A stretch of DNA of 64,000 nucleotides from Candidatus Methylomirabilota bacterium (GTDB lineage: Bacteria; Desulfobacterota; Binatia; Bin18), in contig DATLYA010000005.1 of NCBI GenBank assembly GCA_035575235.1, positions 369-64,368 on the forward strand, written 5' to 3'. Position 1 is the first letter of the stretch. Each line of letters opens with the position of its first letter. The translations under genes were made by a program, and so were the position numbers. Shown one piece after another: positions 13,836 to 60,019 of the stretch. The notes below the pieces were generated by a model. The model had not been told where the DNA came from and made no database searches. It saw nothing but the letters and a program-made list of their open reading frames with translations.

Positions 13836-14133
13836 GTCCACGCTCCATACTTCTGAGAGCAGCAACTAGCGCAAGAGTTCCCCGAACCTGTCTTTAGCTC
13901 TCTTCTCTTTTTCCCACCTACCGACGTTCGCCCCAGCAATGATCAACTGCCCGGCGCTCTACGTGCATCGCGGCGCGTGTACGCGTGTCGGCAGACTTTT
14001 TCAGGGGAACCTTTGGGCGCCCGTGAGCGTTTATTCTCAAGCTCAAGGGGGGAAATGTGTTTGTGGGAACTTCTGCAGGCGATGAAGAGTTTTCTCTACA
14101 AAAGCCAAGCAGCCCGAGAGAAAGGAGGAGACT

Positions 14134-14715
14134 ATGACCTGGGTAAAAACTTTTGCTGAGCATGAGGCCAGCGGACGACTGGCCGAGGTATATGCCGAGT
14201 TAATGAAACACCCACTCGGTGGGGGTCGGGTACCCAACATCATGAAGTGCATGAGCCTGCGACCGGAAGCCCTCCTCGGCGTCTGGCGCCTCAACATGGG
14301 CATCACCTTTGGCGCCTCAACCCTTGGACGGGTGCGGGAGGAGATGATCGCTACTGCGGTCTCTGCCCTCAACCACTGCCATTATTGAACGAATTCCCAC
14401 GCAGAGTTTCTGCGTATGGAGACCGGAAACCACACTTTAGTGAAACATCTCAAGACCGACCCCACTAATGCTCCACTGGCGCCGCCAGACAAGGCCATGA
14501 TCGACTTCGCCCTCAAGCTCACACGCGAGCCCTGGACCGTCAAACAGGCAGATGTCGAGGGTCTCCAGCAGCACGGCTTCAGCGAAGAGCAGGTAGTAGA
14601 TATCGTGCTGATCACCTGCACCTTTAACTTTATGGATCGCCTGGCCGATGGCCTGGGGGTGGAGCTCGATCCTAGGATGCAACGGCTAGTAGAAATGAAT
14701 GCAGACAAGAGCTAG
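14134..14715 (+). CDS. AhpD/CMD-family peroxidase-related selenoprotein, motif C-H-Y-U (UGA 14386-14388)
   Basis: Track ORFs 14134..14388 and 14416..14715 share a frame. ...TAVSALNHCHY[U]TNSHAEFLR... matches S..N.C.YC...H. Strong RBS (AAAGGAGGAG). Confidence 0.85.
14399..14415 (+). promoter_or_regulatory. Candidate SECIS hairpin for UGA 14386-14388
   Basis: ACGCAG/CUGCGU perfect 6-bp stem with loop AGUUU, 10 nt after the UGA. Confidence 0.55.
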
Positions 14716-14929: not shown

Positions 14930-15295
14930 ATGATGAAAAAATTTGTCATCGCGAGCCTGGGGTTGTTCCTTCTGGCAGGCGTATCACCTCTGGTGAGAGC
15001 GGCAGATGAAGGAGCAAAGACCGTTACGGGTGAGGTTATTGACTCTTTTTGTTATGTCGGCATGGGCGCCAGAGGCGCAAGTCATAAGCAGTGCGGCGTT
15101 GACTGTGCCAAAAAGGGCATGTCGGTGGGGCTTCTGGAGAACGGGACGGATAAGATTTATGTCTTGCTTCCGGACAAAGACAAGACACCTCTTCCTGACG
15201 GCGTTATCAATAAAATGGGGAGCACGGCCACGGTCACCGGCAAGTCGTATACGAGTGGCGGCGTCTCATTTCTGATGGTCAGCTCAGTCAGGTGA
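14930..15295 (+). CDS. Exported Cys-containing hypothetical protein
   Basis: Signal peptide MMKKFVIASLGLFLLAGVSPLVRA; four Cys (FCYVG...KQCGVDCAKKG). Confidence 0.6.
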   Translation: MMKKFVIASLGLFLLAGVSPLVRAADEGAKTVTGEVIDSFCYVGMGARGASHKQCGVDCAKKGMSVGLLENGTDKIYVLLPDKDKTPLPDGVINKMGSTATVTGKSYTSGGVSFLMVSSVR

Positions 15296-18125: not shown

Positions 18126-18764
18126 TTAGGCCGACATTTCTGTCCTGGCGGCATCGTCAGCTGTTAAGGCTGCCAGCGCCTGGTCAATTTTCTCGGCCAT
18201 AGTCCATGTAGCGCTATACGCGATCACGCCTTGGCGATCGATGACATACACCATGTTGGGTAACGAACCGAAGCGCTCTGATATGTCATCATTCATGGTG
18301 TCCACCACAATCGTCGCTTTCATCTGCCGGGTTGTTGCTAACTCTTGCGCGTATTGTCGGCGTTGTTCCAACGTCTGAGGCTGCTGGTATTTGCGGTACG
18401 CGGGTTCTCCCGGATGGGGTTCGCGTACGTACACAACTACGAATTCCACGCCATAATGCTCATACTTGGCTTTCAGCTGTTCCATTGGGGCAACCTGCCC
18501 CAAGAAGGGTGGTCAAGTGATGGCGCCAAACTCCAGCACGACGATTTTCCCTCGTAGTCCAGCCAACGAGAAAGGCTCGCCGGTGCTCGTTTCTAAGACC
18601 AACTCCGGCGCTTGCGAGCCGATCGGTCGATAGGTAGCAAAGTTCGCAAAGGCGTGGCGCATGGCGGCGCCAAATTTCTTCTTCATCGTTTTCACGAGGT
18701 TGATTTTGAACATGTCTCTGAGCATCCCTGGGGGATTGCTCGGATAGTCGCCAGTCAATCGCAT
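18126..18764 (-). CDS. Iodothyronine-deiodinase-like thioredoxin-fold selenoprotein (UGA at 18513-18515)
   Basis: Track ORFs 18513..18875 and 18126..18503 share a frame. ...GKIVVLEFGAIT[U]PPFLGQVAPMEQLKAKY...EFVVVYVREPHPGE...IVVDTMNDDISERFGSLPNMVYVIDRQGVIAY matches the deiodinase FGS(A/C)T-U-PPF core. Start ATG 18764 after GGAGGAAAG. Confidence 0.85.
18485..18503 (-). promoter_or_regulatory. Candidate SECIS hairpin for UGA 18513-18515
   Basis: UUGGGGC/GCCCCAA perfect 7-bp stem with loop AGGUU, 9 nt after the UGA. Confidence 0.6.
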
Positions 18765-18817
18765 GGTCTTTCCTCCTGCAGTTCGTATGTTGTGTTCTCT
18801 CTCACCCACTTGCGCGG

Positions 18818-19768
18818 CTATTGCATTGCAGCCCGCCTCCGGCCTTTCCGTAAGATAGCGTCTATATCGCCCCATCCCCCTTGTCCCAGCACAGCAACGG
18901 GATTGGCAACCTTTCCTTGCCCGATAAGTTTGGCGATCGGAGACGGTTCAGGCGGATGGATATCAACCACGGTCGGGTCCTCCGGCCACTCAAAGGGGAG
19001 ATGCACGACGCCGCCGGGCTCTTGAATGTCGATCAACGCCTGCAGTGCGGCGCGAATCACTTGTAGTTGCCCTTCTCGATCGCCTGGCCGCCCGAGAGTG
19101 AGACCGAAGGGGTATTCCAGCGCCGCCACGCGGGGAAAACCATAGGCGCGGCTGTAATCCGGGATCATGTTGACGCAGATCGTCGATATTCCTGCTTCTT
19201 CGATCACACGTTGCACCAGTCCAACGGACCGGCAGCAGATGGGTCACACTGGCACAAGAAACGCCACCTCCACGCCTTCCGCATTCATCTGGGTGGCAAT
19301 CCGTGGAGCAGTGGCGCATACCAGATCCGTGGGATCGGTGTTGTACCCCATAATGGAGTAATGGGTGGGAGCCAGTTCACCGATTTCGCCTGACTGCGCC
19401 AACTCCTGAAAGCGTTGGAGCGGAAGCGCAACATCCAGGTCTTGATAGATGTACTCCGTCTTAATGTGGATGTGATTGACCGCGATATCCTTCTCCGTCG
19501 CCCAGCTGGGGAGCCTGCGGAAACTGGGATCGCCCCAGTACGGGTTCTGGCGTTCCCGCTCCATATTGAACGGCGGATCTGAGGTGAGTGAAATCCCCGC
19601 CGTGGTCAGGAGCGCCACACGACACGTCGAGAGTGGCTTCTTCAGAGGGGTCCAGGGAATCCAGTCATATTGCGGCTCTTGGGGAATAGCCTGGCGCATG
19701 ATCTTCGCTGCTGGTCCGGAAAACCGGTAGCTGTCCACCACCTTTCCTTCGACAATGATTGCCGGCAT
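18818..19768 (-). CDS. GrdB/PrdB-family (glycine/sarcosine/betaine reductase component B-like) selenoprotein, U-P-I-C (UGA at 19244-19246)
   Basis: Track ORFs 19244..19768 and 18818..19216 share a frame. ...VALLTTAG...ALPLQRFQELAQSGEIGELAPTHYSIMG...VEVAFLVPV[U]PICCRSVGLVQRVIEEAGISTICV parallels GrdB ...TST-U-GTCTRCGATMVKEIE.AGIP. Confidence 0.8.
19216..19232 (-). promoter_or_regulatory. Candidate SECIS hairpin for UGA 19244-19246
   Basis: CCGGUCC-GUU-GGACUGG (7 bp, one G-U), 11 nt after the UGA. The identical 17-mer at identical spacing occurs in the paralogue at 57704-57720. Confidence 0.55.
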
Positions 19769-19977
19769 TGTGTTCCTCCTTCCTCTCTTGCCTGCTCATG
19801 GCGCCTCTGTACCACAGGAACTTCTTTCCATTGCGGCGAGTTTATGCATACTGAGCTGCGGATAATTATGAGTCAGAACCATTTCCTGCGCAGAAAAGTT
19901 CCCTCGGCCATAGAGCAAGTGACAGATGTGGCCCTCTGCCATTGCCCCATGAACCAATACAGAAGGAGGACATTAAC

Positions 19978-22538: not shown

Positions 22539-22739
22539 GGTTCTGTACCCGCTTCGCGATCCTTTTTAGGTATCACGGCGGTCAGCCAAGATGACTTGAG
22601 CCAAAAGTGAACAACCGCCGCAGGGGAAAAGTTCCCAATCGCTCGGTTGATAGGAAAGAAACGGGAACTTTGTGACTCGGTGGTTGGTTTTCATACTGGA
22701 TAGACATGGCACTGCTGACACGGAGGAAAGGAGCTGACG

Positions 22740-29097: not shown

Positions 29098-29340
29098 CGA
29101 TTCCTATCTCTCTTGATCGACCATGAAGACTCCTGTTGAAACACCTTTGTGGCTGTGTCCATCGCAAAGAGAAGAGAGAGCGTCGAAATCGTGGAACAAA
29201 AGTCTCTGGAACTTTAGCCGGTACAGTAAGGTTACTGAAAAAATGACGTAGGCGTGCTGTCCGCAAGAGAGCTGTGAACGTGCCAACGTTTTCGGACAGA
29301 CCACACGTACGGAACTCAGTACAGTATTGAGGAGACAAAC

Positions 29341-30585
29341 ATGGAACCTTTCGCTATCGGATTGTATCTCGTCGGCGTTCTCCTGCTCGCGCTAACCTTT
29401 TTCCCTTTCTCCCCTATGACGCTCAAGTTCTGGATGCCGAAGCGCGAGACCATGCTCTTTGCTCATCAGCATCGCGTACTGCTCCGCGGACTTGGGAGCC
29501 TGAGCGTAGCAATCACTTTTTTTCTCGCCATGACGGGGGATGTCGCAACCGAGTGGGGTTGGGTTGCTGGGCTGACTGGAGTGTTTTTCCTCGCTTTTTG
29601 GTGGGGGGGCTATGTCCCGGTCATCATGGGCTCTCCCCAGGACCAGCAACTGCTCAGCGCTGAACAAGCTGAGACCATTCTGAAACCCCAAGACGATGTG
29701 TTAGGCGTGGTGCTGGATGGTGAGGCGCATGCGTATCCGCGGATGGCCATCACTAGGCCACATCTTTATCATGACACGATCGGCGGCATTCCCATCACCG
29801 TAACATATTGCATCCTGTGTAACTCGGGGGTTGCCTTACGGGCAGAGCTTGAAGGACAACCACTCTCTCTCCACCCTATCACCGCCTTCAATAACAACAT
29901 TATCTACTACGATGCTCAGAGTGGAAATTACATCCAACAGTTGGAAGGAGACGTTATTGCTGGCCCAGCAAAGGGAAAACGGCTCGCGACGCTGCCCACC
30001 ACCTTGACCACATGGCGGACCTGGAAAGAACTGTACCCACGGACTCGGGTGCTTTTTGCCCCAGAAACAAAACTGCGCGATCGTATGTTGACGAACATGC
30101 TGCACTGGATGATGCCGCTTGCTGGACTGATGCAACGTCGCACCCCTTGGCATCCATTAAATGTAAATGGTAATCGAGACGAACGGCTGCCAGCGATGAC
30201 TCCGATCTTTGGCGTAGAGGTGAAAAGGGAAAGAAAAGCCTATCCCCTCTCGTTGTTGCGCAACCGCAAGGTTGTAAACGATGCACTGGATGGTGTTCCT
30301 ATCGTGATACTCTACGATCCGGCGCGTGATACGGGAGGTGTCTTTACACGGGAAGTCGATGGCCGAGTCCTCACATTCCGCGCCTTTGCGAACGGGGTCT
30401 CTCAGATCGTAGCGATGGATGAAGAAACACGAAGCTTGTGGGATGTGAGAGGAAAAGCCTGCGAAGGAGTCTCAGCAGGCACAGGCTTGTCCCCGGTTCC
30501 TCACTTTGGGAAAGTATTTTGGTTTAGTTGGGCCACATTTCGACCGGGGACGAGACTCGAAACAGAGGTCGCCGGTGGACATTAA
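29341..30585 (+). CDS. DUF3179 domain protein (Cys form, TYCILCNSG) with N-terminal TM region
   Basis: ...GEAHAYPRMAITRPHLYHDTIGGIPITVTYCILCNSGVAL...TLTTWRTWKELYP. Serves as the Cys reference for the two Sec paralogues. Confidence 0.85.
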   Translation: MEPFAIGLYLVGVLLLALTFFPFSPMTLKFWMPKRETMLFAHQHRVLLRGLGSLSVAITFFLAMTGDVATEWGWVAGLTGVFFLAFWWGGYVPVIMGSPQDQQLLSAEQAETILKPQDDVLGVVLDGEAHAYPRMAITRPHLYHDTIGGIPITVTYCILCNSGVALRAELEGQPLSLHPITAFNNNIIYYDAQSGNYIQQLEGDVIAGPAKGKRLATLPTTLTTWRTWKELYPRTRVLFAPETKLRDRMLTNMLHWMMPLAGLMQRRTPWHPLNVNGNRDERLPAMTPIFGVEVKRERKAYPLSLLRNRKVVNDALDGVPIVILYDPARDTGGVFTREVDGRVLTFRAFANGVSQIVAMDEETRSLWDVRGKACEGVSAGTGLSPVPHFGKVFWFSWATFRPGTRLETEVAGGH

Positions 30586-47934: not shown

Positions 47935-48399
47935 TTAGGCCGACTGATCGGGCACGTTCCCTGGCCAGTAGCGACACATAAATATCCGTAGCCGGGCGGA
48001 GAGATGCGTCAGAAAAAACGGCTTGGCGAGAAAGTCATCCGCCGCCAGCGCGAAGGCTTTCTCCTGCTGGTCCCCTGAGGAGAGACGAGACATAGCAATG
48101 ACGTGGGGGAATGGCCCTCTCCGCTCATCCCGCACGTGGCGTAGCACGGTAAATCCATCCAGTTCTGGCAGCTGTAAATCGAGGAGCAACACATGGACTT
48201 CTTCCTTCGCCAAGATAGCAAGGGCGGCTTTTCCATCACCGGCAGTTCGTACACGATAGCCCTGGTGGTGCAGGTGCTGCACGAGGATCTCCCGAAGCCT
48301 ATCGTTGTCGTCGGCGATCAAAACCGTGGGATGCTTCGGCAATGCCACCGCCGATCGTGTCTTCCGCTGTTGAGCGGCAAACTTTATCACCTGTCCCAT
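47935..48399 (-). CDS. Stand-alone response-regulator receiver protein
   Basis: VLIADDNDRLREIL...LLLDLQLPELDGFTVLRHVR...DFLAKPF. Confidence 0.85.
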   Translation of the reverse strand: MGQVIKFAAQQRKTRSAVALPKHPTVLIADDNDRLREILVQHLHHQGYRVRTAGDGKAALAILAKEEVHVLLLDLQLPELDGFTVLRHVRDERRGPFPHVIAMSRLSSGDQQEKAFALAADDFLAKPFFLTHLSARLRIFMCRYWPGNVPDQSA

Positions 48400-48445
48400 G
48401 GCAGCATGCCATTCTCCTTGGACTATTCTCTACACATTGATTTGC

Positions 48446-49360
48446 CTACTTCGTCACCATGTATACGGGTGCATCGGGATGAAACGTCGCCCACGCAAAC
48501 CAATAAGCAATAACGGAGGGAATGAGCTTGCCGGAGACAGTCTCCCTCACTTGGGCGCTGTCGGCGGCGGCATCGTAGGTAATGGTGATTTGCACCTTGC
48601 CAATCTGATCGTCGAGCGGCGCCTGTTGTTCGCGCAGAAGTTTCAACGGATAGGCTTTGTGGGCGTCGCCAATCGTGACCCCCACCACCTTCTCTTTCGG
48701 CGAGAGTCGTGAGTCTTCATTCTTCACCGGAAACATGGGATTAGGACTCTTGGCGTACGCCAGATAGGGCAAACGATTATAATCCCGATGAAAGCCGGTC
48801 TGAGTCGAAAGCACCAGGGTCTTCGGGTGCTGCTCGCGCCACGCCCTCCAGGTCGTGGTCACCGACGGCATGGGAGAAAGACGAGCCCCGGTCTGCGGAC
48901 CGGTAACCGCTTCTTCTTTGAGCTGTGACCACAGACTTTCCGTCTGGTGGTCGTAAAACAACACGTTGCTCTCGTAGAGCAATCCAGAGACGCCGAAGGT
49001 CAGCTCTTTATCCTTGACTTTGCGGTCGTACACGACGCCGCTGGCCGTCAACGGTCAATAGGTAACGGCAATTGGTTTCTCCCCCAGTCGATCATTGACC
49101 ACCTCATGCCACGTCAGAATGCGCAGCGGGTAAGCCTTGGCTACACCTTTATCTACGATGCCAATGACTTCATCAGCATCCTCCAGGAAGGTCGCTTCCG
49201 CGGCTGGAACAAACTGCGGATCAAGAATAGCGGGAATGCCGTCTTTGGGGGGGCCGCCGCCGCGAATCTCTTCCGGGGGAATACTATGCTTCGAGTAGTC
49301 AAAACCGCTCAGGCACCCAACCATTGCCAGCAAGCCAATAGTGCGAAGACCTTTCTGCAT
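48446..49360 (-). CDS. DUF3179-family selenoprotein (lipoprotein/exported), TY-U-PLT (UGA at 49055-49057)
   Basis: Track ORFs 49055..49360 and 48446..49051 share a frame. ...KAYPLRILTWHEVVNDRLGEKPIAVTY[U]PLTASGVVYDRKV...TTTWRAWREQHP aligns with TVTYCILCNSGVAL of 29341-30585. Confidence 0.8.
49022..49039 (-). promoter_or_regulatory. Candidate SECIS hairpin for UGA 49055-49057 (weak)
   Basis: GGCGUCG-UGUA-CGAC(C)GC, 15 nt after the UGA. An alternative 5-bp hairpin CCGUU-N7-AGCGG starts directly after the UGA. Confidence 0.35.
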
Positions 49361-49392
49361 AACACCTCCAAGGCAACGACTGTGAGACTCTC

Positions 49393-49902
49393 CTACTGCG
49401 CTTCGAGCACACGAATGCGATACGCCCGAAACTCAGGCACGTCATTCTTAAAGAAGATGAAGCGAAAATCGTCCTGCGCGCCGGCCGCGATGCGCTCCAC
49501 CCCCATGTCGGCCGGCGCCTTGTTCCCAACTTCATAGGCTTCTTCACGCAACGCTTCGGCTTTGCGGTTGTAGCCATAGTCACGGAAGACGACAATGTCG
49601 TTTTCACCGAGGAGTTCGAACTGGAGCTTGACATAGGTCAGGGGCTTCTCGGCAGCATTCTCCAGTCGGCCATTGATCAAGAGGATCGGTTCGGACCCAC
49701 CACTCATGCTGAAGAATGAGGTCCATTCTCCACGGTGGGAGAGCAAGCGTACGCCCAGCCCGTCCGTCGGAACCAGACTGCCTGGCACGGCGGTCGGGGC
49801 GTCGGGAATGCCCGTAGCGTCGGGCGGCGCAGCATAGGCGTGAGATGAACCGAGGATGGCTATGCAGAGGAGGATAAGGAAAAGTACATTGTGGGTCACC
49901 AT
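49393..49902 (-). CDS. Exported hypothetical protein
   Basis: Start taken at MVTHNVLFLILLCIAILGSSHAYA (internal Met of track ORF 49393..49995). Lies 32 nt upstream of the DUF3179 Sec gene. Confidence 0.55.
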   Translation of the reverse strand: MVTHNVLFLILLCIAILGSSHAYAAPPDATGIPDAPTAVPGSLVPTDGLGVRLLSHRGEWTSFFSMSGGSEPILLINGRLENAAEKPLTYVKLQFELLGENDIVVFRDYGYNRKAEALREEAYEVGNKAPADMGVERIAAGAQDDFRFIFFKNDVPEFRAYRIRVLEAQ

Positions 49903-50077
49903 AATAAGCCTCCACAGGCGCGAAGCTGCACGCGCAACGTGCAGCTTTCTCTGTTCCATTGTTTTCAACCACGGGCGCGTTCCGGAAGTTCCCACGGTCG
50001 TGTCGGGGTGCTCCCTTCCGGGAACTTTCAGGCTTCTTCATTGGTTTTTCTTTCCATGACTATAGGGAGGGAATGCT

Positions 50078-51235
50078 ATGGCGGCAGTCACAAACATGGA
50101 ACGAACGGTACAGGAGCAATATACAGCGGGCGCCCGAGTGGCGGAGGCGGCGCTGTGTTGTCCGGTGGACTATAATCCGGAGTATCTTACCATCTTGCCT
50201 CAAGAAATCATCGACAAGGACTATGGCTGCGGTGATCCGTCTCGCTATCTGCGAGCCGGTGAAACCGTACTCGATCTGGGCTGCGGCGCGGGCAAGATCT
50301 GCTATATCGCCGCGCAGGTGGTGGGTCCCACCGGCCTCGTCATTGGCGTTGATATGACGCCTGAGATGCTCGCCGTCGCTGAAAAATACCGTCAACAGAT
50401 CGGCGAGCGCCTGGGTTTCCACAATGTGGAGTTTCGTCGCGGCCGTATTCAGGACCTGCGTACAAATCTCGACGCCGTCGAGCAGTACCTGCAACGTCAC
50501 CCCATCGCTTCGGTCGCGGACTTGCAGGCCTTCTCTACCTTTCAGGCCGAACAGCGCGTGGAGCGACCGTTGATTGTTGATGAATCCGTTGATGTCGTGG
50601 TGTCCAACTGCGTCCTCAACCTGGTCGATGACGCGGACAAACGACAGCTCTTCGGCGAGATTTTCCGTGTCCTGCGCAAAGGTGGCCGAGCGGTCATTTC
50701 GGACATTGTCGCGGATGAGCCCGTTCCCCTCCATCTCAAGAGCGATCCAGACCTCTGGAGCGGCTGCATCTCTGGCGCACTGCAAGAGCACGACTTTCTC
50801 CGGGCGTTTGCTGAAGCCGGGTTCCACGGGATCGAAATCCTCAAACGCGACCAACAACCGTGGCGTACAGTGGAAGGGATAGAATTCCGCTCCGTGACCG
50901 TGGCCGCCTATAAAGGCAAGCAAGGCCCATGCTGGGATTGTAATCACGCCGTCATCTACAAAGGCCCCTGGAGTGCAGTGACAGATGATGATGGCCACAC
51001 GCTCATCCGTGGGGTGCCAATGGCGGTGTGTGAGAAAACGTTTCGCTTGTACACGCGCGAACCCTATGCACATCACATTATCCCTGTGCAACCGCTGACG
51101 CCGATCGCGCTGGAAGATGCTCAGCCATTCGATTGCAGTCGCGATACGGTGCGCAGCCCACGAGAAACGAAGGGCTTGGAGTATCGCGCGACAACCGAGT
51201 CGACCGCCTGCTGTGAGCCGGGAAAATGTTGTTAA
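50078..51235 (+). CDS. arsM: Arsenite S-adenosylmethionine methyltransferase-like (ArsM family)
   Basis: ALCCPVDY, DYGCGDP, VLDLGCGAGK SAM motif, VVSNCVLNLV, LWSGCISGAL. This is the conserved ArsM Cys pattern. Confidence 0.85.
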   Translation: MAAVTNMERTVQEQYTAGARVAEAALCCPVDYNPEYLTILPQEIIDKDYGCGDPSRYLRAGETVLDLGCGAGKICYIAAQVVGPTGLVIGVDMTPEMLAVAEKYRQQIGERLGFHNVEFRRGRIQDLRTNLDAVEQYLQRHPIASVADLQAFSTFQAEQRVERPLIVDESVDVVVSNCVLNLVDDADKRQLFGEIFRVLRKGGRAVISDIVADEPVPLHLKSDPDLWSGCISGALQEHDFLRAFAEAGFHGIEILKRDQQPWRTVEGIEFRSVTVAAYKGKQGPCWDCNHAVIYKGPWSAVTDDDGHTLIRGVPMAVCEKTFRLYTREPYAHHIIPVQPLTPIALEDAQPFDCSRDTVRSPRETKGLEYRATTESTACCEPGKCC

Positions 51236-51258
51236 CAGGAGAGGAACAAGCAGGATTT

Positions 51259-52230
51259 ATGCAACCGATGCCATTTGCCGCACGACTCCGCCGCGAGGGC
51301 GTCTCTTTAACACGCTCCGGTATTGGCGCCGTCCAACTCAATGTCGGCAAACGCTGTAATCAAGCCTGTCTCCATTGTCACGTGGATGCCGGCCCTAAGC
51401 GCACGGAAATTATGGATCGGCGGACTGCCGAACTCGCGCTCGAGTTCATCCGGGCCGCCGGGGTGTGGACAGTAGATATCACCGGCGGCGCGCCAGAATT
51501 GAATCCCTCGTTTCGCTTTCTGGTGGAACAGGCGCGGTGCGACGGCCGTCAGGTGCTGGATCGCTGTAACCTCACGGTGCTCCTGGAGCCCGGACAAGAG
51601 GACCTGCCACCCTTCCTCGCGGCGATGGGCGTCGAAGTGATCGCCAGCCTGCCCTGTTACCTGCTGGAGAATGTCGAAAGACAACGCGGGCGCGGGGTGT
51701 ACGACAAATCCATCGAGGCGCTGCGCCGTCTGAACGCCGAAGGGTACGGACAGGAACGCTCTGGTCTTGTGCTGAATCTCGTCTACAACCCGATTGGCGC
51801 GCACTTGCCGCCGCAGGATAACCTTGAGGCGGATTATAAACGGGAGCCCGGCACGAGATTCGGCATCCGCTTCAATCACCTGTACACGCTCACCAACATG
51901 CCGATCGCGCGTTTCGCCCACACACTCCAGCGGGAAGGCCAATTCGACGCGTACCTTGAGCTGCTCGCCACTGCATTCAACCCGGCGACGCTGAACAATC
52001 TTATGTGCCGGAATCTGGTGAGTATTTCCTGGGATGGGTTTTTCTACGACTGTGATTTCAACCAGATGCTCGATTTGCGTCTCGGTAATGGCAAACCACT
52101 GCGCTTGGGCGAGCAGTCCGGCGCTGAGCTTGTGCGCCAGGTAGTGCGGCGGGAAATTCTCACAGACTCGCACTGCTACGGGTGCACGGCTGGGACCGGG
52201 AGTTCGTGTGGTGGAGCGTTAGCTGCCTGA
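51259..52230 (+). CDS. arsS: Radical SAM/Cys-rich protein of the arsenosugar-biosynthesis ArsS family
   Basis: LNVGKRCNQACLHCH radical-SAM CxxxCxxC, ...ITGGAPELNP..., C-terminal HCYGCTAGTGSSCGG. Confidence 0.9.
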   Translation: MQPMPFAARLRREGVSLTRSGIGAVQLNVGKRCNQACLHCHVDAGPKRTEIMDRRTAELALEFIRAAGVWTVDITGGAPELNPSFRFLVEQARCDGRQVLDRCNLTVLLEPGQEDLPPFLAAMGVEVIASLPCYLLENVERQRGRGVYDKSIEALRRLNAEGYGQERSGLVLNLVYNPIGAHLPPQDNLEADYKREPGTRFGIRFNHLYTLTNMPIARFAHTLQREGQFDAYLELLATAFNPATLNNLMCRNLVSISWDGFFYDCDFNQMLDLRLGNGKPLRLGEQSGAELVRQVVRREILTDSHCYGCTAGTGSSCGGALAA

Positions 52231-52276
52231 AACCTGTCCCTCGTGGGAACAGCAATCGCCAGCAAACGCAGGGGTT

Positions 52277-53125
52277 ATGCTCGTGCGCAGAACAACAACG
52301 CTCTCTTTTCCTTCTTTCGTGCTGACGATCATTTGCTTGGGGCGCTTTTTGAGTGTGAACGCGCATGCCGAGCAGTTGACACTCGCCGGGTCGAGCACGA
52401 TACAGCCGGTTGCCGAAGTGCTGGGGCAAAAATTTGAACAGCTGCATCCTGAATCCCAAATCAATGTCCAGGGTGGAGGCTCGTCCGTTGGCATCACCGC
52501 ACCACAGAGCGGCCTGGCTGATATCGGCATGGTCTCCCGCGCGCTCCATGCTGAGGAAGCGCAGAAACTCGTGCCAACGACCTTCGCGCTGGACGGCATC
52601 GCCCTGATCGCGCACGCCAGTAACCCGGTCTCAGGTCTCAGCCGCCAGCAGGTCATCGACATTTATACGGGGAAAGTTTCGAACTGGGGGGCGCTCGGCT
52701 GGCGTGACGCCCGTATTGTCGTGGTCAACAAAGAAGAAGGGCGCGCCACGCTCGAGCTGTTTGCCCAGTACTTCGAGCTCACGGGCACCTTCGTGCGCGG
52801 CGCCATCATCATAGGTCCCAATGGGCAAGCGATTGCGACGGTCGCCGGGAATCCACAGGCGATCGCCTATGTGTCGATCGGCTCTGCCGAGGTAGCGGTG
52901 GAACAAGGGACCTCGATCAAACTGCTCGCCCTGGATGGCGTGGCCGCGACGAGCATCAATGTCAAAAGTGGAGCCTATGGACTGACCCGCCCGCTCAACT
53001 TCGTCACAATGGGACCGCCACACGGGCTGGCCAAAGCATTCTTGGATTTCGTACTGACACCCATGGGGCAACAGATCGTCACGGAGCAAGGGTTCGTACC
53101 CGTGCGAAAGATCATCACACGGTAG
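52277..53125 (+). CDS. pstS: PstS-family phosphate(-like oxyanion) ABC substrate-binding protein
   Basis: LTLAGSSTIQPVAEVL...VQGGGSSVGI...IGMVSR...ALDGIALI...TGKVSNW. Confidence 0.85.
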   Translation: MLVRRTTTLSFPSFVLTIICLGRFLSVNAHAEQLTLAGSSTIQPVAEVLGQKFEQLHPESQINVQGGGSSVGITAPQSGLADIGMVSRALHAEEAQKLVPTTFALDGIALIAHASNPVSGLSRQQVIDIYTGKVSNWGALGWRDARIVVVNKEEGRATLELFAQYFELTGTFVRGAIIIGPNGQAIATVAGNPQAIAYVSIGSAEVAVEQGTSIKLLALDGVAATSINVKSGAYGLTRPLNFVTMGPPHGLAKAFLDFVLTPMGQQIVTEQGFVPVRKIITR

Positions 53126-53177
53126 TAGTGGCTCATCGCAGTAATTGTGAGGGGCGAAGGAGACTCAAGAGAGACAG

Positions 53178-53247
53178 AGATTGCTTCGCTCCGCTCGCAA
53201 TGACCCCTCGCTCTGTCATTGCGAGGAGCAGAGCGACGAAGCAATCT
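53178..53247. repeat. Palindromic intergenic repeat (AGATTGCTTCGCTCCGCTCGCAATGAC / GTCATTGCGAGGAGC..GACGAAGCAATCT) between pstS and pstC
   Basis: About 30-nt inverted arms around a 10-nt centre. Confidence 0.65.
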
Positions 53248-53283
53248 TTGCCTGGCAAAATCATTGAGAGGAAGTAGTAGCAC

Positions 53284-54216
53284 ATGGCCAATTCCCATTC
53301 CCTTGACAATCAGTTTCTCACTCATGACCTCGCGCTTCCAGATATCGATGCGACGGGACAGGGAAGCGCGTGGAGGGAGCGGCTGTTCGTGTGGGGCCTG
53401 CGGGGGTGCGCCGGGTTGGCGGGCGTCATCACTCTCCTCATCGTGGTGTATCTGTGCGCCCAAAGCTTCCCCCTGTTGCACCAGATCGGGATGACACGTT
53501 TCTTCACCGATCAGAGGTGGGCCCCGACGCGTGGTCAGTTCAACCTCGTACCGATGTTTGTTGGTACGCTTTACGCCACGCTTGGAGCCGTGACGGTAGC
53601 AGCCCCCTGCGGTATCGCCCTGGCAGTGTTTGCCGCCTTTTACGCACCGTCACCAATCGCCCGTGTCGTACACGGTGTATTGGGACTCCTCGCCGGCATT
53701 CCGTCCGTGGTGTTTGGTCTCTGGGGACTGGTGACGCTTGTGCCGCTTCTCAATCGGGTACATCCTCCGGGGCTTTCGCTGTTGATGGGCATTGTCATCT
53801 TAACATTGATGATCCTCCCCACCATCGCGCTGATCGCGGAGGCGGCGCTGCGCGCCGTGCCACGGGAATATGTGCTTGGTGGAGCGGCGCTGGGCTGCGG
53901 TCGGTGGCAGATCGTGCGAAACATTGCGTTGCCGACCGCTCGCGCGGGTTTGCTCACGGCAGTGCTGCTCGGCGTCGGGCGCGCGCTCGGCGAGACCATG
54001 GCCGTCAGCATGGTCATGGGCAATACCATCCAGATTCCAGATACCGTGTGGGTTCCTGCGCGGACGTTGACCGCGCATATCGGTCTGGAAATGGCCTATG
54101 CCATGGGGAGCCATCGCGCAGCGCTCTTTGTCGCCGGGTTATGGTTACTGAGCGCCGTCATCGGCTTGGTGTTCGTCGTCGAGTGGATCAATCGGGATCG
54201 TATACATGGAGCCTAA
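53284..54216 (+). CDS. pstC: Phosphate ABC transporter permease PstC
   Basis: 6-TM ABC permease with EAA-like loop (...AAPREYVLGGAALGCGRWQIV...). Confidence 0.9.
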   Translation: MANSHSLDNQFLTHDLALPDIDATGQGSAWRERLFVWGLRGCAGLAGVITLLIVVYLCAQSFPLLHQIGMTRFFTDQRWAPTRGQFNLVPMFVGTLYATLGAVTVAAPCGIALAVFAAFYAPSPIARVVHGVLGLLAGIPSVVFGLWGLVTLVPLLNRVHPPGLSLLMGIVILTLMILPTIALIAEAALRAVPREYVLGGAALGCGRWQIVRNIALPTARAGLLTAVLLGVGRALGETMAVSMVMGNTIQIPDTVWVPARTLTAHIGLEMAYAMGSHRAALFVAGLWLLSAVIGLVFVVEWINRDRIHGA

Positions 54217-55096
54217 CCGCGCGTCGATCACGCGTCCTGGTCTGCTGCCTCTGTTTGTTCATCCTGCGTCGGCGTGGCCAGAACACTTCGTCACAGGTGG
54301 ACTCTGGCTCGTGACCTTGGGGGTAATTGGCGTGTTCGCCTGGATTCTGGGGGATCTGCTGTACCACGGCGCCACCGCGCTCTCTCTTGACTTTGTGCTC
54401 CAACCGCCCCTGCAGGCTGGACGAGCAGGCGGCATCTCAACGGTCATCATCGGGACGCTCCTCATCGTTGGCGTCGCCCTTGGCAGCGCCGTGCCGATCA
54501 GTCTGGGAACGGCGATCCTCCTGGCCGAGGCGAGCAACGCGGAGACATCCTTTGGTCGTGTCGTACGACGCAGCTTGGACGTGTTGGCTGGCGTCCCCTC
54601 CATTGTTTTTGGGCTGTTTGGTCTGGCGTTGTTCGGACAGTTTTTGGGCTGGTCGATTCTCTCGGGCGGCTTGACCCTGGCGTGTATGATTCTCCCGGTG
54701 TTGATCCGCTCCACCGAAGAGAGTGTGCGCGCCGTACCGGCCAGCCTTCGGCATGGCGCTGCAGCGTTGGGACTCTCGCCACGGGCAATCTTGTGTCATC
54801 TGACGCTCCCGGCAGCCACTCCTGGCATCCTCGCGGGACTGGTCTTGAGCGTGGGGCGGGCGCTGGCGGAAACGGCCGCTCTGCTCTTTACCGCAGGAGC
54901 GGCGATCCGCATGCCGACCTCCCTGTTTGATTCGGCCCGATCGCTTTCCTACCACATTTACTTATTGGCCATCGAAGTGCCGGGAGGGCAGGAGCGCGCG
55001 TACGCCTCAGCGGTCGTCCTGGTCGGCATGCTCTTGCTGCTTAACGGCGCGGCGGTGCTGCTGGCGCGACGCTTTCAACGAAGGCTGGCGCCGTAA
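54206..55096 (+). CDS. pstA: Phosphate ABC transporter permease PstA
   Basis: Overlaps the pstC end. ...ESVRAVPASLRHGAAALGLSPRAILCHLTLPAA... Confidence 0.9.
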   Translation: MEPNRASITRPGLLPLFVHPASAWPEHFVTGGLWLVTLGVIGVFAWILGDLLYHGATALSLDFVLQPPLQAGRAGGISTVIIGTLLIVGVALGSAVPISLGTAILLAEASNAETSFGRVVRRSLDVLAGVPSIVFGLFGLALFGQFLGWSILSGGLTLACMILPVLIRSTEESVRAVPASLRHGAAALGLSPRAILCHLTLPAATPGILAGLVLSVGRALAETAALLFTAGAAIRMPTSLFDSARSLSYHIYLLAIEVPGGQERAYASAVVLVGMLLLLNGAAVLLARRFQRRLAP

Positions 55097-55110
55097 CGAG
55101 AGGAATTTTC

Positions 55111-55926
55111 ATGAACGCAACGCAGGTCATCCGGCGGGAAAAGTCAGGCTGTTGTATTCCGGTCACGAAATTAGAAACGCGCCGTCTGTCCGTCAGGTAC
55201 GGCAGACGGACGGTGCTCCGCAAGGTGTCGCTGCCGATGCATAAGTGTTGTGCAACCGCCATCATTGGACCCTCAGGCTGTGGCAAGTCCAGTTTTCTTA
55301 TGGCGCTGAATCGTCTGACGGATCTTATTCCAGGCGCCAGCGTCACGGGAGAGGTGCTGCTGGACGGTGACAATCTCCTGGCTGATGACGTCAACGTCAC
55401 CATGGTGCGTCGCCGCATCGGCATGATCTTTCAGAAACCCAATCCCTTCCCGCTGTCGATCGAACGCAACCTCACACTGGCGCTTGAACATCACGGGGTC
55501 AAAGAGCGGACAAGACAAGCGGAGATCGTGGAAACGAGCCTCCAAGCGGTCGGATTATGGCAGGAGGTCAAAGACAAGCTCCGCACGTCCGGTCTCGCAC
55601 TCTCCGGCGGCCAGCAGCAGCGTCTGTGCATTGCCCGCGCTATTGCCCTGCAGCCGGAAGTGTTGCTCATGGACGAGCCGTGCAGCGCGCTGGACCCGCG
55701 CGCCAGCGCCCAGGTGGAAGAGTTGATCCGCGCGCTCGCCAGGCGCTTTACTGTCGTTGTCGTCACCCACAACCTCCACCAAGCCCGGCGCGTGAGCGAT
55801 TACGCCGCGCTATTTTGGCAAGAGGAGGGGTACGGTGCGCTTGTAGAAGCTGGCCCCACTGAGGCGCTCTTTGACGACCCCCAACATGTCAAAACCCGGG
55901 CGTATGTCCAGGGCGTGATTGGCTGA
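55111..55926 (+). CDS. pstB: Phosphate ABC transporter ATP-binding protein PstB
   Basis: Walker A GPSGCGKSS, signature LSGGQQQR, Walker B LLMDEP. PstB-typical ...FQKPNPFP.SI..N. Confidence 0.95.
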   Translation: MNATQVIRREKSGCCIPVTKLETRRLSVRYGRRTVLRKVSLPMHKCCATAIIGPSGCGKSSFLMALNRLTDLIPGASVTGEVLLDGDNLLADDVNVTMVRRRIGMIFQKPNPFPLSIERNLTLALEHHGVKERTRQAEIVETSLQAVGLWQEVKDKLRTSGLALSGGQQQRLCIARAIALQPEVLLMDEPCSALDPRASAQVEELIRALARRFTVVVVTHNLHQARRVSDYAALFWQEEGYGALVEAGPTEALFDDPQHVKTRAYVQGVIG

Positions 55927-55973
55927 GAGAAAAAAATACAGCTGAAGAACGTACGCAAAGAAAAGAGCGGTGC

Positions 55974-56078
55974 ATGGTCTGGATCAAAACGTTTGAGGAG
56001 AAAGAGGCCAGCGGACAGCTGGCTGAAGTGCTCGCTCGCACCCAGCGGTTGGTCGAACAAAACGCCGACAAGGGATGA
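55974..56078 (+). pseudogene. N-terminal fragment (34 codons) of an AhpD/peroxidase-related paralogue
   Basis: MVWIKTFEEKEASGQLAEVLARTQ... parallels MTWVKTFAEHEASGRLAEVYAEL of 14134. It stops 4 nt before the convergent DUF3179 gene end. Confidence 0.45.
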
Positions 56079-56081
56079 CCT

Positions 56082-57020
56082 TCAAGACGGGTCTGCCTTG
56101 TAGAACAGGGAGTGCGGATAAAACGTGTTCCAGGTCGCGCGGTACGTGACTACGGAAGACAGACGTTCGCCAGTGATCTTTTCGGCATACGCGAATGCAC
56201 TCTCCGGCACAAAGACGATCCGCACTTCTGTTCCTTCGATTATGTCGGTCAGAGACGCCGTGCGCGCCAATATAGCGAGCGGATACGCTTTCTGTACTTC
56301 ACCCATAGTCACCCCAAGCACAAGCTCATCGAGCGCTATCTGCGGACGCGCACTGAGCGGCCAGTGGATACCGCCGAGTGGAGAGAGCAATGTTTGCAGG
56401 GTTTTCCCTAAAGCGGAAAAGACAGCCGGAACACGCCGTTCGACCACGACGCGGCTATGCGGGTGTTGCTGTCGCCATTCGCGCCACGTCGTCATCATAA
56501 AGGGAACCGTGCGCAATTTCGCGCCGGTCATCCGTCCCGCCACCGCCTCGGCGGTGATCTGTGACCAGAGGCTGTCCGTCTGACGATCATACAGCAAGAG
56601 GTTGCTATGATAGAGCCGTCCGGAAACGCCAAAGCTGAGCGTCTGTTCTCCGACATTGCGGTCGTACACGACGCCGCTGACCGTAAGCGGTCACCACGTG
56701 ACGGCGATCGGCCGGCCTCCGATGTCGTCATTGACGATCTCGTGACCATGAAGGATGCGGATCGGATAGGCGCGCGCTTCCTCACCGATAACCACGCCGA
56801 TGACCTGCTCTTCAGGAACCAGGTCGTCGACCGCGCTGGCCGGAACCACTTCCGGATTATCGATTGCGGGGATGGCGTCCTTCGGCACGACTTGAATTGA
56901 TAGCGCGGGAACCGGCGCACTGTGGCGCGTGAGATCAAAGCCCCAGGCTGGGGTGGTCAGCGACAAGAGGAAAAAACAGGAAACGTAACGCTTCAACGAG
57001 CTGAGAAGGATGCGTATCAT
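56082..57020 (-). CDS. DUF3179-family selenoprotein (exported), TW-U-PLT (UGA at 56691-56693)
   Basis: Track ORFs 56691..57020 and 56082..56669 share a frame. ...RAYPIRILHGHEIVNDDIGGRPIAVTW[U]PLTVSGVVYDRNV...MTTWREWRQQHP. Confidence 0.8.
56658..56675 (-). promoter_or_regulatory. Candidate SECIS hairpin for UGA 56691-56693 (weak)
   Basis: Same 18-mer GGCGUCGUGUACGACCGC as at 49022-49039, at the same 15-nt spacing. An alternative CCGCU-N7-AGCGG hairpin lies directly after the UGA. Confidence 0.35.
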
Positions 57021-57176
57021 GAGCTCTGCTCCTCTCTAGAGAAACCGCCCTACCGTAAGAAAAGTTTCCTCTCGCGTTTTCTCACAGAATGGAAACTTTT
57101 CGCTGGGTCCTCTGGTTAGAGTATGTACCTTTCTATAGTCTGCTGTTCTGGGAATGGCGTATACACCGGAGGACCC

Positions 57177-57983
57177 ATGGAGCTGCATCGCTGGCGGACT
57201 CAACTCATCGCGTTGTTCTTTAGCCGGTTTCCGACATTAACCGCGCGCTGGGTGAAAAAACAACAACTCGATGAGTATGGACCTCCCCCCTGGAGCCCAG
57301 TAACGAAACCGGTGACGCAATGTCGAGTGGCTTTGGTCACCACCGCCGGTGTGCATCGCAAAGAGGACACCCCGTTCAATATGGAGGATAGACAGGGAGA
57401 TCCTACGTATCGCGTCATCCCGCGAGATATCCCCCGCGAAGATTTATGCATCACGCATGATTACTATGATCATCGTGATGCTGACAAAGACTTGAACATC
57501 GTCCTCCCGTTAGATCGTCTACAGGAGCTCGTGCAAGAGCGCATCGTCGGTGAAGTGGCGCCGTTTCACTATAGTTTTATGGGTCATATCGACGGACCGC
57601 ATGTGTCGCGCCTGCTGGCCGACACCGCGCCATCCGTGGCCCGGCGCCTCAAGCGCGAACAGGTTGATGCGGTTGTGTTGACCCCTGCATGAGGGCTGTG
57701 TAACCGGTCCGTTGGACTGGTCGCACGGACAATCGAGCAGCATGGCGTTCCCACGGTAGCGCTTAGTATTCAACGGGAATTGACGGAAAAGACCCGTCCA
57801 CCGCGCGCGCTCTTTGTGCGCTGGCCGTATGGGCATCCGTTAGGAGAACCTTTCAATGTGGCGCAACAGCGCTGGGTGTTGCGCGACGCCTTAAAAGCGC
57901 TGGAAGAGATTCACACACCCGGCGTCATCATCGACCTGCCCTATCTCTGGCGTCGTCCGGGGCCGTGGGCTACAAAAAAATGA
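57177..57983 (+). CDS. GrdB/PrdB-family selenoprotein paralogue, U-G-L-C (UGA 57690-57692)
   Basis: Track ORFs 57123..57692 and 57780..57983 share a frame. ...RVALVTTAG...LPLDRLQELVQERIVGEVAPFHYSFMG...VDAVVLTPA[U]GLCNRSVGLVARTIEQHGVPTVAL. Start ATG 57177 after CGGAGGA. Confidence 0.8.
57704..57720 (+). promoter_or_regulatory. Candidate SECIS hairpin for UGA 57690-57692
   Basis: CCGGUCC-GUU-GGACUGG, 11 nt after the UGA. Identical to the element at 19216-19232. Confidence 0.55.
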
Positions 57984-58164
57984 AGAAGGGAGGTACTCAA
58001 CGACACCGGAGAGCGAGGGGATTAGAGCATTTCCCGGCTGAGACCAGCATTGACAATCACACCAGGCTGTCCCCATCCTGCCTTTCTTGTCAATCTCGCC
58101 CTCGGGTTCGTCATCTCTGCCTGTCTATTGCTGCACTCACTTAACGCCAGAAAAAGTCTACAGG

Positions 58165-58380
58165 TCAGACATTCCGAGTACGCCGGCGCTCAAAGGTTTC
58201 CGCCAGACGCATGAGGGCAATACCGGGCAACACCAGGAGTCCACCATTCAACAGGAGGCCTCGCAGGGTAAAATCATTCGAGGCGAAGGCCCAGGGCAGC
58301 CCGATCATGTTACTCATCCCGGCGAAACCGAGCACAAACCCGACAGTACGGAGAAACCCAGGTCGTTGTAGGAAGTGCAT
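58165..58380 (-). CDS. Small two-TM membrane protein
   Basis: AAGGAGAC RBS. MHFLQRPGFLRTVGFVLGFAGMSNMIGLPWAF...GGLLVLPGIALMRLAE. Confidence 0.5.
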   Translation of the reverse strand: MHFLQRPGFLRTVGFVLGFAGMSNMIGLPWAFASNDFTLRGLLLNGGLLVLPGIALMRLAETFERRRTRNV

Positions 58381-58583
58381 ACCGTCTCCTTTGGCACAAT
58401 CAGCTTGCGCTCAGTGTTGAATGGTTTAGCGTCCTGCCTTTTAGAGAACCACTGACCCAGCGCAAAAGTTCCCTTGCGCCCGTCGTGCGCTGGAGTCGCC
58501 ATGCCGGGAACTTTTACGCTGTTCCCCTGGTTTACTGCTGCATGGAGCTGTGTTGGAGCGACGGTCGTGGTATTAGTGTGTCC

Positions 58584-59216
58584 ATGGCTGCACGGGACGC
58601 CGAGGAACAGAAACACGCGTTGTTTGCCCAGTGGGCGCTGCCTCATAAAGATTACCTCTATATAGCCTGTCTCTACCTGACCCGGCAGCGGGACGACGCG
58701 GAGGACTTGTTTCAAGAAACCTACCTGCACGCCTTTCGCTTTTTTCATCAGTTCACCCCGGGAACCAATTGCCGTGCATGGTTACTGACGATCATGCACA
58801 ATGTGTTCAAGAATCGCTATCGACACTACCAGCGCACCAATCAGACCTTGGAGTTCGATCTGGCGGCCCATGAGTACGAGAAAAAACGGCTGGCGGATGG
58901 CGAGGCAGGCCGGGACGATCCAGCTGACCTCCTGTTCTCACAACTTGTTGACAATGAAATCACCGACGCGCTGCAGACCTTACCGGAGGAATATCGCTCC
59001 ACGCTCGTGCTGGTCGACATCGAAGAGTTAACGTATGAAGAGGCGGCCGCAATCTTGGGTTGTCCGATCGGCACCGTACGCTCGCGGCTGTCACGCGCAC
59101 GGCGGTTACTCCGCACCGCCTTGACCGCCTATGCTCGAGGCCGCGGGTATGTGCGAGAAAAGAAGCCACGCAGTGAATCTACTGAGGCGTTACCGAAAAC
59201 AGAGAGCAAATTATGA
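58584..59216 (+). CDS. ECF RNA polymerase sigma factor
   Basis: DAEDLFQETYLHAFRFFHQF..GTNCRAWLLTIMHNVFKNRYR; region 4 YRSTLVLVDIEELTYEEAAAILGCPIGTVRSRLSRARR. Start is uncertain (58485 to 58584). Confidence 0.85.
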   Translation: MAARDAEEQKHALFAQWALPHKDYLYIACLYLTRQRDDAEDLFQETYLHAFRFFHQFTPGTNCRAWLLTIMHNVFKNRYRHYQRTNQTLEFDLAAHEYEKKRLADGEAGRDDPADLLFSQLVDNEITDALQTLPEEYRSTLVLVDIEELTYEEAAAILGCPIGTVRSRLSRARRLLRTALTAYARGRGYVREKKPRSESTEALPKTESKL

Positions 59217-60019
59217 ACTGTGACCTGTATGAGGATCTGGTTGCCGCGCACGTTGATGATGCGCTGACGGAAGCGGAGGCGGTGGCAGTGCAGGCGCATC
59301 TTTACGCTTGTGACCGCTGCCGCCGTGTATTTGAGGAAGAGGCGCGGTTTCACGCCGCTTTCTCCGCGCGTGAGCTCGTTGTTCCTGTCCCCATTGATGT
59401 GGAGCGACGCCTGCGCCAGAGTTTGGCGGACGAAAGCGAGGCGGGTCGTTCGTTCTGGGCGCGTCTGGGCGCGGGGTTCGGCTCTCTGCCTATGATCCCC
59501 CGTGTGGCGTTCGGACTCGCCGCGGCGGGGATTTTCCTCGTCCTGCTGCTTCCCCACCTGTTCCGCTCGACTCCAACCAGGGATGTCTTTGCCCAGGCCG
59601 TGTACTACTATCAAACCATGAGCGCCGGCGCCTTCCCGATTGAGTACGCCACGGAGGACCCCCAGGGTTTACAGTCCCAGTTGAATACCTCTGGTCGTCT
59701 CGATTTTGCTACTCAAGTCTCCGACCTCCGGCCGGCAGGGTACCGCCTCCGCGGTGGAAGGGTGATAGAAACGGAGGGTCGTCTCCTGGCCGTGGCGCTC
59801 TACGAAGAAGAGGGGGAGGAGCCGATCGTGTGTCTGCGCCAACGCGGATCACTTCCCCCTCTACCCCAGGGTGCGGTAGGAGGAAAGAATCACTACTGGT
59901 ATACGGCGGGTGGGTATACCGCCCTGTTTACGCAATTCCCCGATCATTTTTGCATTATGATCTCGCGCCAACCTCCCGAGATCTTTCTCCAACGCCTGGC
60001 CAGGGCGGCGGAGCCTTGA
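59213..60019 (+). CDS. Membrane-anchored zf-HC2 anti-sigma factor
   Basis: ATGA-coupled. MNCDLYEDLVAAHVDDALTEAEAVAVQAHLYACDRCRRV, one TM span (VAFGLAAAGIFLVLLLPHLF), periplasmic domain. Confidence 0.8.
   Translation: MNCDLYEDLVAAHVDDALTEAEAVAVQAHLYACDRCRRVFEEEARFHAAFSARELVVPVPIDVERRLRQSLADESEAGRSFWARLGAGFGSLPMIPRVAFGLAAAGIFLVLLLPHLFRSTPTRDVFAQAVYYYQTMSAGAFPIEYATEDPQGLQSQLNTSGRLDFATQVSDLRPAGYRLRGGRVIETEGRLLAVALYEEEGEEPIVCLRQRGSLPPLPQGAVGGKNHYWYTAGGYTALFTQFPDHFCIMISRQPPEIFLQRLARAAEP

Follow-up and report, generated by a model that had tools for sequence, protein, structure and literature searches.

The question raised by this locus is whether the in-frame UGA of a DUF3179 gene in Candidatus Methylomirabilota bacterium is decoded as selenocysteine (Sec), and why the nucleotides that follow it recur in an otherwise diverged paralogue. 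The gene, named G2 here, and the paralogue, G1, both lie on the minus strand of a 64,000-nucleotide stretch of contig DATLYA010000005.1, which was analysed as a whole and is called the window below. An earlier interpretation made from the letters of the window (the sequence-only reading) had proposed that G2 is a DUF3179 selenoprotein paralogue and that an RNA-level constraint, imposed by a selenocysteine insertion sequence (SECIS), acts on it on top of the protein constraint. Both proposals were borne out, although the constraint was found in another hairpin than the one proposed. As judged from comparative sequence analysis, G2 encodes a selenoprotein and carries a SECIS within the coding region, and Sec insertion is deduced from the established bacterial mechanism.

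The minus-strand frame of G2 has a single TGA interruption. Its translation runs through GGRPIAVTW to the interruption and continues with PLTVSGVVYDRNV, so both the PIAVTW-U context and the UGA position given by the sequence-only reading were correct. The translation of G1 around its TGA is PIAVTY followed by PLTASGVVYDRKV. With cysteine (Cys) placed at the stop, both proteins passed the gathering cut-off (27 bits) of Pfam DUF3179 (PF11376), G2 with E = 5.5e-69 and 233 bits and G1 with E = 6e-94 and 315 bits. The best stretch of the G2 match spans the first half of the profile only, and the C-terminal half of the protein is divergent, lacking the TGFxRDY...PY segment.

Homologues were investigated in 166 loci (numbered with the prefix L; L081 is the window's own contig), which were collected from genome-contig and metagenome-contig scans and from exact-protein look-ups. 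These loci contained 41 distinct DUF3179 genes with TGA, in which the motif was UPLT, UPLC, UPLS, UPLA, or UPVC, and about 110 Cys forms, all with CPLC except for two CPLT genes that lie near the Sec clade. The UPLS and UPLA motifs, which have neither a second Cys nor Thr, were seen in metagenomic DUF3179 genes of L089-L093, L098, L103, L110, L129, L136, and L154. In all Cys forms of the fetched loci (69 + 40 motif matches), the UGA column holds C. About 25 G2 orthologues (59-90% identity) were obtained in a protein search; each had been called as a fragment of about 195 residues that starts just past the UGA, while the full-length homologues (about 40% identity to G2) carry Cys in a CPLC motif. 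Nearly all genes found in the genome-contig scan were Cys (CPLC) forms, and TGA appeared only in L001, L014, L036, and L042, because split tblastn matches rank low; the Sec orthologues came from the metagenome scan and the look-ups. G2 thus carries what marks a selenoprotein gene, an in-frame UGA at the Cys position of its homologues with conserved coding sequence on both sides.

In the codon alignment, G1 and G2 shared 44% of their amino acids and 53% of their nucleotides, in agreement with the divergence that had been claimed for the surrounding coding sequence. The longest identical run was 24 nt (CAGCGGCGTCGTGTACGACCGCAA; 56656-56679 in G2 and 49020-49043 in G1) and begins at the 12th nucleotide past the UGA, while the second-longest was 9 nt. 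The position given by the sequence-only reading therefore held, but not the length, which had been put at 25 nt with a typed string of 23 nt. The codon-by-codon comparison that it had suggested was then restricted to codons for identical, degenerate amino acids in G1 and G2. Within UGA+1..+13, 10 of 11 such codons were the same, compared with 45 of 112 elsewhere (Fisher p = 0.0014). Given the codon usage of 14 long window genes, 3.6 identical codons would be expected among the 11 (P(>=10) = 7e-5) and 39.7 among the 112 in the rest of the gene. Since identity in the rest of the gene is close to this expectation, the synonymous sites are saturated and a recent duplication is excluded; uniformly low synonymous divergence, the pattern that had been named as fatal to an RNA constraint, was not observed. 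That 24 nucleotides are shared by otherwise saturated paralogues is because of a double constraint: the same bases must encode S-G-V-V-Y-D-R and form a hairpin, and their synonymous sites are therefore frozen.

This hairpin lies within the identical run and starts 13-15 nt past the UGA in every Sec form. In G2, the stem starts 13 nt and the loop 20 nt past the UGA. Its consensus over G1, G2, and the UPLT and UPLC clades is (G/C)(C/G)GGC(G/A)U[CGUGU]A(C/U)G-A-CC(G/C)(C/G). In 19 sequences of class I, the seven stem pairs, formed by alignment columns 17-23 with columns 29-36, were 98.5% paired, compared with 21-50% for slid registers. Three of these pairs change on both sides, with exchanges between G-C and C-G at the two outer pairs and between G-C and A-U at an inner pair. 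The outer exchange ties a switch of Ser codon (AGC to UCG) to the replacement of Arg by Pro at a distance of 18 nt, and the inner one couples GTC/TAC to ATC/TAT, with G-U intermediates. Class II (15 sequences with the motif VYSR and no bulge) was 97% paired and shows the exchange between G-C and A-U again, independently. Two further classes have a hairpin at the same place, CCGG(U/G)C[AGGUCUWU]G(A/C)CCGG and GGAGUCG[GGUU]CGACUCC, and four stem versions were seen among the DUF3179 sub-clades. The Cys forms are without the hairpin. At similar GC content, the folding energy of positions +14..+38 was -9.5 +/- 2.0 kcal/mol in 40 Sec forms and -4.5 +/- 2.7 kcal/mol in 111 Cys forms, and the Asp codon in the stem showed a GAC:GAT ratio of 24:0 in Sec forms versus 24:24 in Cys forms. 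With a covariance model trained on the 19 class-I sequences, G2 scored 64 bits (E = 5e-13), G1 59.9 bits, and held-out Sec orthologues 58-65 bits, versus 20 bits for the Cys orthologue in L162. When the model was run on the window, only G1 and G2 were found, and the best other match stayed below 11 bits.

The sequence-only reading had instead pointed to a short hairpin directly after the UGA (CCGCU/AGCGG), in which G2 and G1 differ by a C-to-U change (CCGCU against CCGUU). This difference is present as described and retains a G-U pair, and the RNAfold minimum-energy fold of G2 contains a 6-bp helix, UGACCG/CGGUCA, in the same proximal region. However, the proximal hairpin was only 67% paired in 19 homologues, showed no compensatory changes, and did no better than slid controls. 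The close orthologues in L085-L088 have C for G at the third position, which breaks the pairing, and CCGCU/AGCGG competes for the AGCGG bases of the stem supported above. Hence, we regard it as improbable that either proximal pairing is a functional lower part of the SECIS, and the hairpin inside the identical run is taken as the SECIS in what follows.

In the gene most closely related to G1 (L162:7293-8219, 83-84% amino-acid identity), TGC (CPLT) stands where G1 has TGA, and this gene was called at full length. Its locus has the gene order of the window (G1, a 170-residue gene, ArsM, ArsS, pstSCAB, and G2), and the G2 orthologue there retains TGA. Considering that this Cys gene nests among Sec forms (L166 at 80% and L087 at 78%), the direction of change was most simply from Sec to Cys. 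Its 21-nt core contains four substitutions (GGC>GGG, GTC>ATC, GAC>GAT, and CGC>CGG), which destroy the stem and match the gene-wide mean of 3.9 per 21 nt. In the UPLT clade, by contrast, none of the 14 Sec genes differs at more than one position of the core, and of the three single changes found, two produce G-U pairs. This is a clean natural experiment, in which the SECIS core decayed to the background substitution rate inside a Sec clade, and it shows that the RNA constraint, as read from substitutions, lifts once Sec is lost. According to a 2026 review, bacterial Sec-to-Cys conversions are rare and have been documented mainly for FdhA and SelD. The G2 stem-loop lies shortly 3' of the UGA, is conserved and covarying, and has a G1 counterpart that is lost in the Cys orthologue, as would be expected of a SECIS.

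Could the 24 identical nucleotides reflect a recent duplication, or a short tract of gene conversion between the paralogues, instead of selection on RNA? Conversion would be feasible, with the copies 7.6 kb apart on the same strand and only 2.2 kb apart in relatives (L085, L087, and L166), and a single identical block of 24 nt in a diverged pair has the shape of a conversion tract. A recent duplication conflicts with the synonymous sites outside the block, which are at the codon-usage level (45 of 112 versus 39.7). Further, the 21-nt core shows little or no change in either paralogue lineage on at least eight other contigs, from organisms at 65-90% protein identity. Pairing persists in more distant homologues even where the bases differ, and in the one orthologue with Cys the core has decayed at the usual pace. 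We therefore consider both origins very unlikely. An explanation by protein constraint on S-G-V-V-Y-D-R together with strong codon bias in a GC-rich genome is about equally hard to credit. The motif is highly conserved, and GGC, GTC, GTG, TAC, GAC, and CGC are all common here (within-family frequency 0.34-0.58). Nevertheless, codon bias predicts 3.6 identical codons of 11 instead of 10, and the even use of GAC and GAT in Cys homologues gives way to GAC throughout in Sec forms. Moreover, the Cys orthologue keeps S-G-I-V-Y-D-R yet changes three synonymous sites, and protein constraint does not predict the coupled AGC to UCG and Arg-to-Pro changes. Least probable of all is that the UGA is a real stop (of a pseudogene or of two short genes) or is read as an ordinary amino acid. 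In favour of this, gene calling divided each orthologue there and no Sec machinery is visible in the window, but both halves are conserved as protein in the orthologues and jointly make up one Pfam domain, the UGA aligns exactly with an invariant Cys and precedes a conserved, covarying hairpin, and TGA ends ordinary genes of the window as well (G2 itself, pstB, and ArsS), so UGA is not generally reassigned.

Upstream, G2 is arranged divergently with a GrdB-like Sec gene across a 156-bp intergenic region (57021-57176). This arrangement, also described in the sequence-only reading, is real, and the region, which is conserved in L082, was found to hold two oppositely oriented promoter motifs of the extracytoplasmic function (ECF) sigma type. 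The core AGGRAACTTTTCTT occurs twice in it, once per strand, and GGTT follows each copy at equal spacing. On the DUF3179 side, the core is found in L161 and L164 too, even with a different upstream neighbour, and the motif upstream of G2 orthologues is kept in L082, L083, L085, L086, L087, L161, L163, and L166. With a GGAAC-like -35 element and a GTT -10 element about 18 nt apart, upstream of genes, the motif fits the SigE/SigH promoter consensus GGAAC-N18-19-GTT (PMC10012870). A sigma-70 promoter scan of 55900-58200 found none. From these predicted promoters, it is plausible that G2 and the GrdB-like gene are co-regulated.

Several observations weigh against the reading of G2 as a SECIS-directed selenoprotein gene under an ECF-type promoter. 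In a position-blind permutation with an 11-codon sliding window, the G1/G2 pair alone gave p = 0.07; the pair by itself would not be conclusive, and the homologues are. Independent compensatory events are few, at least 2-3, plus the differently built stems of the two further classes, and a single event separating the UPLT and UPLC clades may account for both outer-pair compensations. No Rfam family matched the hairpin, either over the whole window at gathering thresholds or over 48300-58100 at E <= 10. Neither selA, selB, selD nor a tRNA-Sec gene is present in the 64-kb window (a tRNA search found none); the presence of several selenoprotein genes there argues that the bacterium would have the Sec-decoding machinery. 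Finally, L164 is without the full motif, its -10 element being ATT instead of GTT.

Even with these points considered, we hold the whole explanation with high confidence, resting as it does on sequence comparison: G2 is probably a DUF3179 selenoprotein gene with SECIS-directed decoding, frozen synonymous sites, and an ECF-type promoter. Transcription most likely starts from the GAAACTT-N16-GTT element upstream of the start codon, and the product would be a probably exported DUF3179 selenoprotein. The UGA would be decoded as Sec under the direction of the hairpin inside the coding sequence. Following the established bacterial mechanism (PMC9312934), SelB carrying Sec-tRNA(Sec) would bind the hairpin while the ribosome sits on the UGA. 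The coordinates of the features are collected in table 1.

Table 1. Features of the G1/G2 locus and related elements of the window (positions are those of the 64,000-nt stretch)
Feature	Position	Strand	Details
G2, DUF3179 selenoprotein gene (predicted)	56082..57020	-	312 residues including Sec110; motif U-P-L-T
In-frame UGA of G2, predicted to be read as selenocysteine	56691..56693	-	aligned with first Cys of CPLC in Cys homologues
SECIS of G2 (predicted)	56658..56677	-	GCGGCGU[CGUGU]ACG(A)CCGC; 7 bp and bulged A; within run 56656-56679
G1, paralogous DUF3179 selenoprotein gene (predicted)	48446..49360	-	UGA at 49055-49057
SECIS of G1 (predicted)	49022-49041	-	within identical run 49020-49043
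ECF-type promoter motif GAAACTT-N16-GTT	57043..57068	-	ends 22 nt before G2 start codon
ECF-type promoter motif GAAACTT-N16-GTT	57092..57117	+	ends 59 nt before GrdB-like start codon
PrdB/GrdB-like selenoprotein gene (predicted)	57177..57983	+	motif U-G-L-C; UGA 57690-57692; hairpin CCGGUCC[GUU]GGACUGG
ECF-type promoter motif	49967..49992	-	upstream of 169-aa gene 49393-49902(-); kept in L085, L086, L087, L162, L166
Further motif copies	14066-14091, 19817-19842, 22664-22689, 29208-29233, 50021-50046	+	
Further motif copies	19877-19902, 22610-22635, 58447-58472	-	
Motif, SigH/SigE-like ECF sigma gene, zf-HC2 anti-sigma gene	58507-58532, ~58542-59216, 59213-60019	+	Pfam, NCBIfam

Besides G2, five genes of the window contain an in-frame TGA, namely G1, two PrdB/GrdB-like genes, one deiodinase-like gene, and one AhpD/CMD-like gene. 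All belong to families known to include selenoproteins, and a hairpin with G and U in its loop lies 12-14 nt past each UGA. The PrdB/GrdB-like protein encoded next to G2 fails the equivalog cut-offs of TIGR04483 (197 bits versus 300) and TIGR01918 (64.9 versus 65.45). The other PrdB/GrdB-like gene has its TGA at 19246. These two paralogues, with 40% protein identity, share an 18-nt SECIS core (CCGGUCCGUUGGACUGGU; 57705-57722 on the plus strand and about 19214-19231 on the minus strand), and the pair shows the same phenomenon as the DUF3179 pair. The deiodinase/thioredoxin-fold-like gene (18126-18875, minus strand; TGA 18513-18515, GAIT-U-PPF) has the hairpin UUGGGGCA[GGU]UGCCCCAA and overlaps the end of the first GrdB-like gene, with which it probably shares an operon. 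The AhpD/CMD-like "peroxidase-related" gene (14134-14715, plus strand; TGA 14386-14388) encodes C-H-Y-U (CxxU), has the promoter motif upstream, and matches NCBIfam TIGR01926 above its cut-off. Nearby, an open reading frame of 121 residues (14930-15295, plus strand) has no family match and a promoter motif upstream, and its TGA at 15293-15295 is followed by 72 more in-frame codons. A third DUF3179 paralogue (29341-30585, plus strand) has 414 residues, the Cys form CILC, N-terminal membrane segments, and the promoter motif upstream.

Between G1 and G2 (49393-56081), as also in L162, are the 169-residue gene, an ArsM-like gene, ArsS (TIGR04167, above cut-off), and pstSCAB. The 169-residue gene is directly followed by G1, with which it forms a putative operon. 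In L166, ArsP, MerR, MerT, and HMA genes also lie near the paralogues, so the context is metal(loid)-related. Whether a GrdB-like gene generally lies beside the DUF3179 gene was tested in the related loci. Only the closest relatives show this linkage (L082; L161 and L163, where a gene has been inserted; L164, where the two share a strand), and L085-L088 and L166 lack it, so that adjacency alone says little about a functional link. The insertion in L161 and L163 (L161:8075-9487 and L163:147-1559, an 87%-identical relative) is a 470-residue gene of the MptA_B family, and the GrdB-like gene keeps its own promoter motif there, now inside the end of the inserted gene.

The promoter motif is not confined to the G2 control region. 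We found 16 copies of GRAACTT-N16-GTT in the window (12 of them are placed in table 1) against 0.22 expected, a number that none of 100 shuffles reached, and 15 of the 16 lie 20-150 nt upstream of a start codon on the same strand, often as divergent pairs. The motif upstream of both DUF3179 paralogues is kept in nine related loci, versus one copy in 924 kb of unrelated DUF3179 loci. It heads the units of all six selenoprotein genes of the window, which are G2; the second GrdB-like gene; the 169-residue gene with G1; the first GrdB-like gene followed by the deiodinase-like gene; and the CMD-like gene. Other units headed by it are ArsM/ArsS, a second CMD gene, a glyoxalase gene, the third DUF3179 gene, and the ECF sigma gene. 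The best NCBIfam match of the sigma protein was TIGR02947 (SigH_actino, 9.5e-45), and the SigH and SigE models all stayed below cut-off. This sigma factor is a candidate regulator of the motif. We tentatively propose, at somewhat less than even odds, that the six selenoproteins, the third DUF3179 protein, ArsM/ArsS, and the glyoxalase form one regulon under an autoregulated SigH/SigE-like sigma factor and its zinc-finger anti-sigma factor. If true, an uncultured selenoprotein-rich lineage would have a stress regulon made up mostly of selenoproteins, of which several seem to be exported, and this would give a testable handle on when uncharacterised selenoproteins are made.

The N-terminus of G2 resembles a signal peptide (MIRILLSSLKRYVSCFFLLSLTTPAWG), and that of G1 a lipoprotein signal (LAMVGC). 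Together with the membrane segments of the third paralogue, these N-terminal sequences make an extracytoplasmic role likely. A function in redox chemistry or metal(loid) handling outside the cytoplasm is possible, judging from the U/C-x-x-C/T/S/A motif, the export signals, and the promoter context. The AlphaFold model of a Cys homologue (P0033) had a predicted local distance difference test (pLDDT) score of 94; when it was compared with the PDB in Foldseek, nothing matched at E <= 0.001 and a Rieske-type ferredoxin came closest, as a partial match over 86 columns. A profile search of PDB sequences found no relative. The fold thus yielded no functional assignment.

DUF3179 has been tabulated as a selenoprotein family with the motif UxxC/T (PMC9312934; PMC13188914), in each review with a reference to Zhang & Gladyshev 2007 (PMC1976440). 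That the family contains selenoproteins was thus known before, and a bacterial SECIS is expected to constrain synonymous sites. G2 agrees with the known members in its Pfam domain, in Sec in place of the first Cys of CPLC, in the recorded UxxT form, and in a SECIS directly downstream. Unlike them, the window has two Sec paralogues and a third, membrane-anchored Cys paralogue within 64 kb, and the G2 sub-clade has a divergent C-terminal half. In contrast to the UxxC/T of the reviews, metagenomic relatives also show UxxS and UxxA. The finding on G2 thus confirms textbook behaviour, in which a bacterial SECIS within the coding sequence freezes synonymous sites. Its practical value is for annotation, considering that every gene caller split the DUF3179 Sec genes at the UGA. 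The natural experiment in L162 and the candidate ECF regulon are worth more than the G2 finding itself.

The type example of a bacterial SECIS is that of Escherichia coli fdhF. In general, the bacterial element is a stem-loop immediately 3' of the Sec UGA and is bound by SelB (PMC9312934). The G2 stem-loop resembles it in lying within the coding sequence shortly after the UGA and in having G and U in the apical loop, and also in that the synonymous-site constraint disappears when Sec is replaced by Cys. Unlike curated SECIS elements, it matches no Rfam family, and its sequence is specific to the protein family and varies between sub-clades. As for the promoters, ECF regulons of the SigE/SigH/SigR type have promoters of the form GGAAC/T-N18-19-GTT and zinc-binding anti-sigma factors (PMC10012870). 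The motif of the window shares this -35/-10 core and spacing, and the sigma gene itself carries the motif and is followed by a zf-HC2 anti-sigma gene. In contrast to these regulons, the sigma factor falls below every NCBIfam equivalog cut-off, and the putative regulon is unusually rich in selenoproteins.

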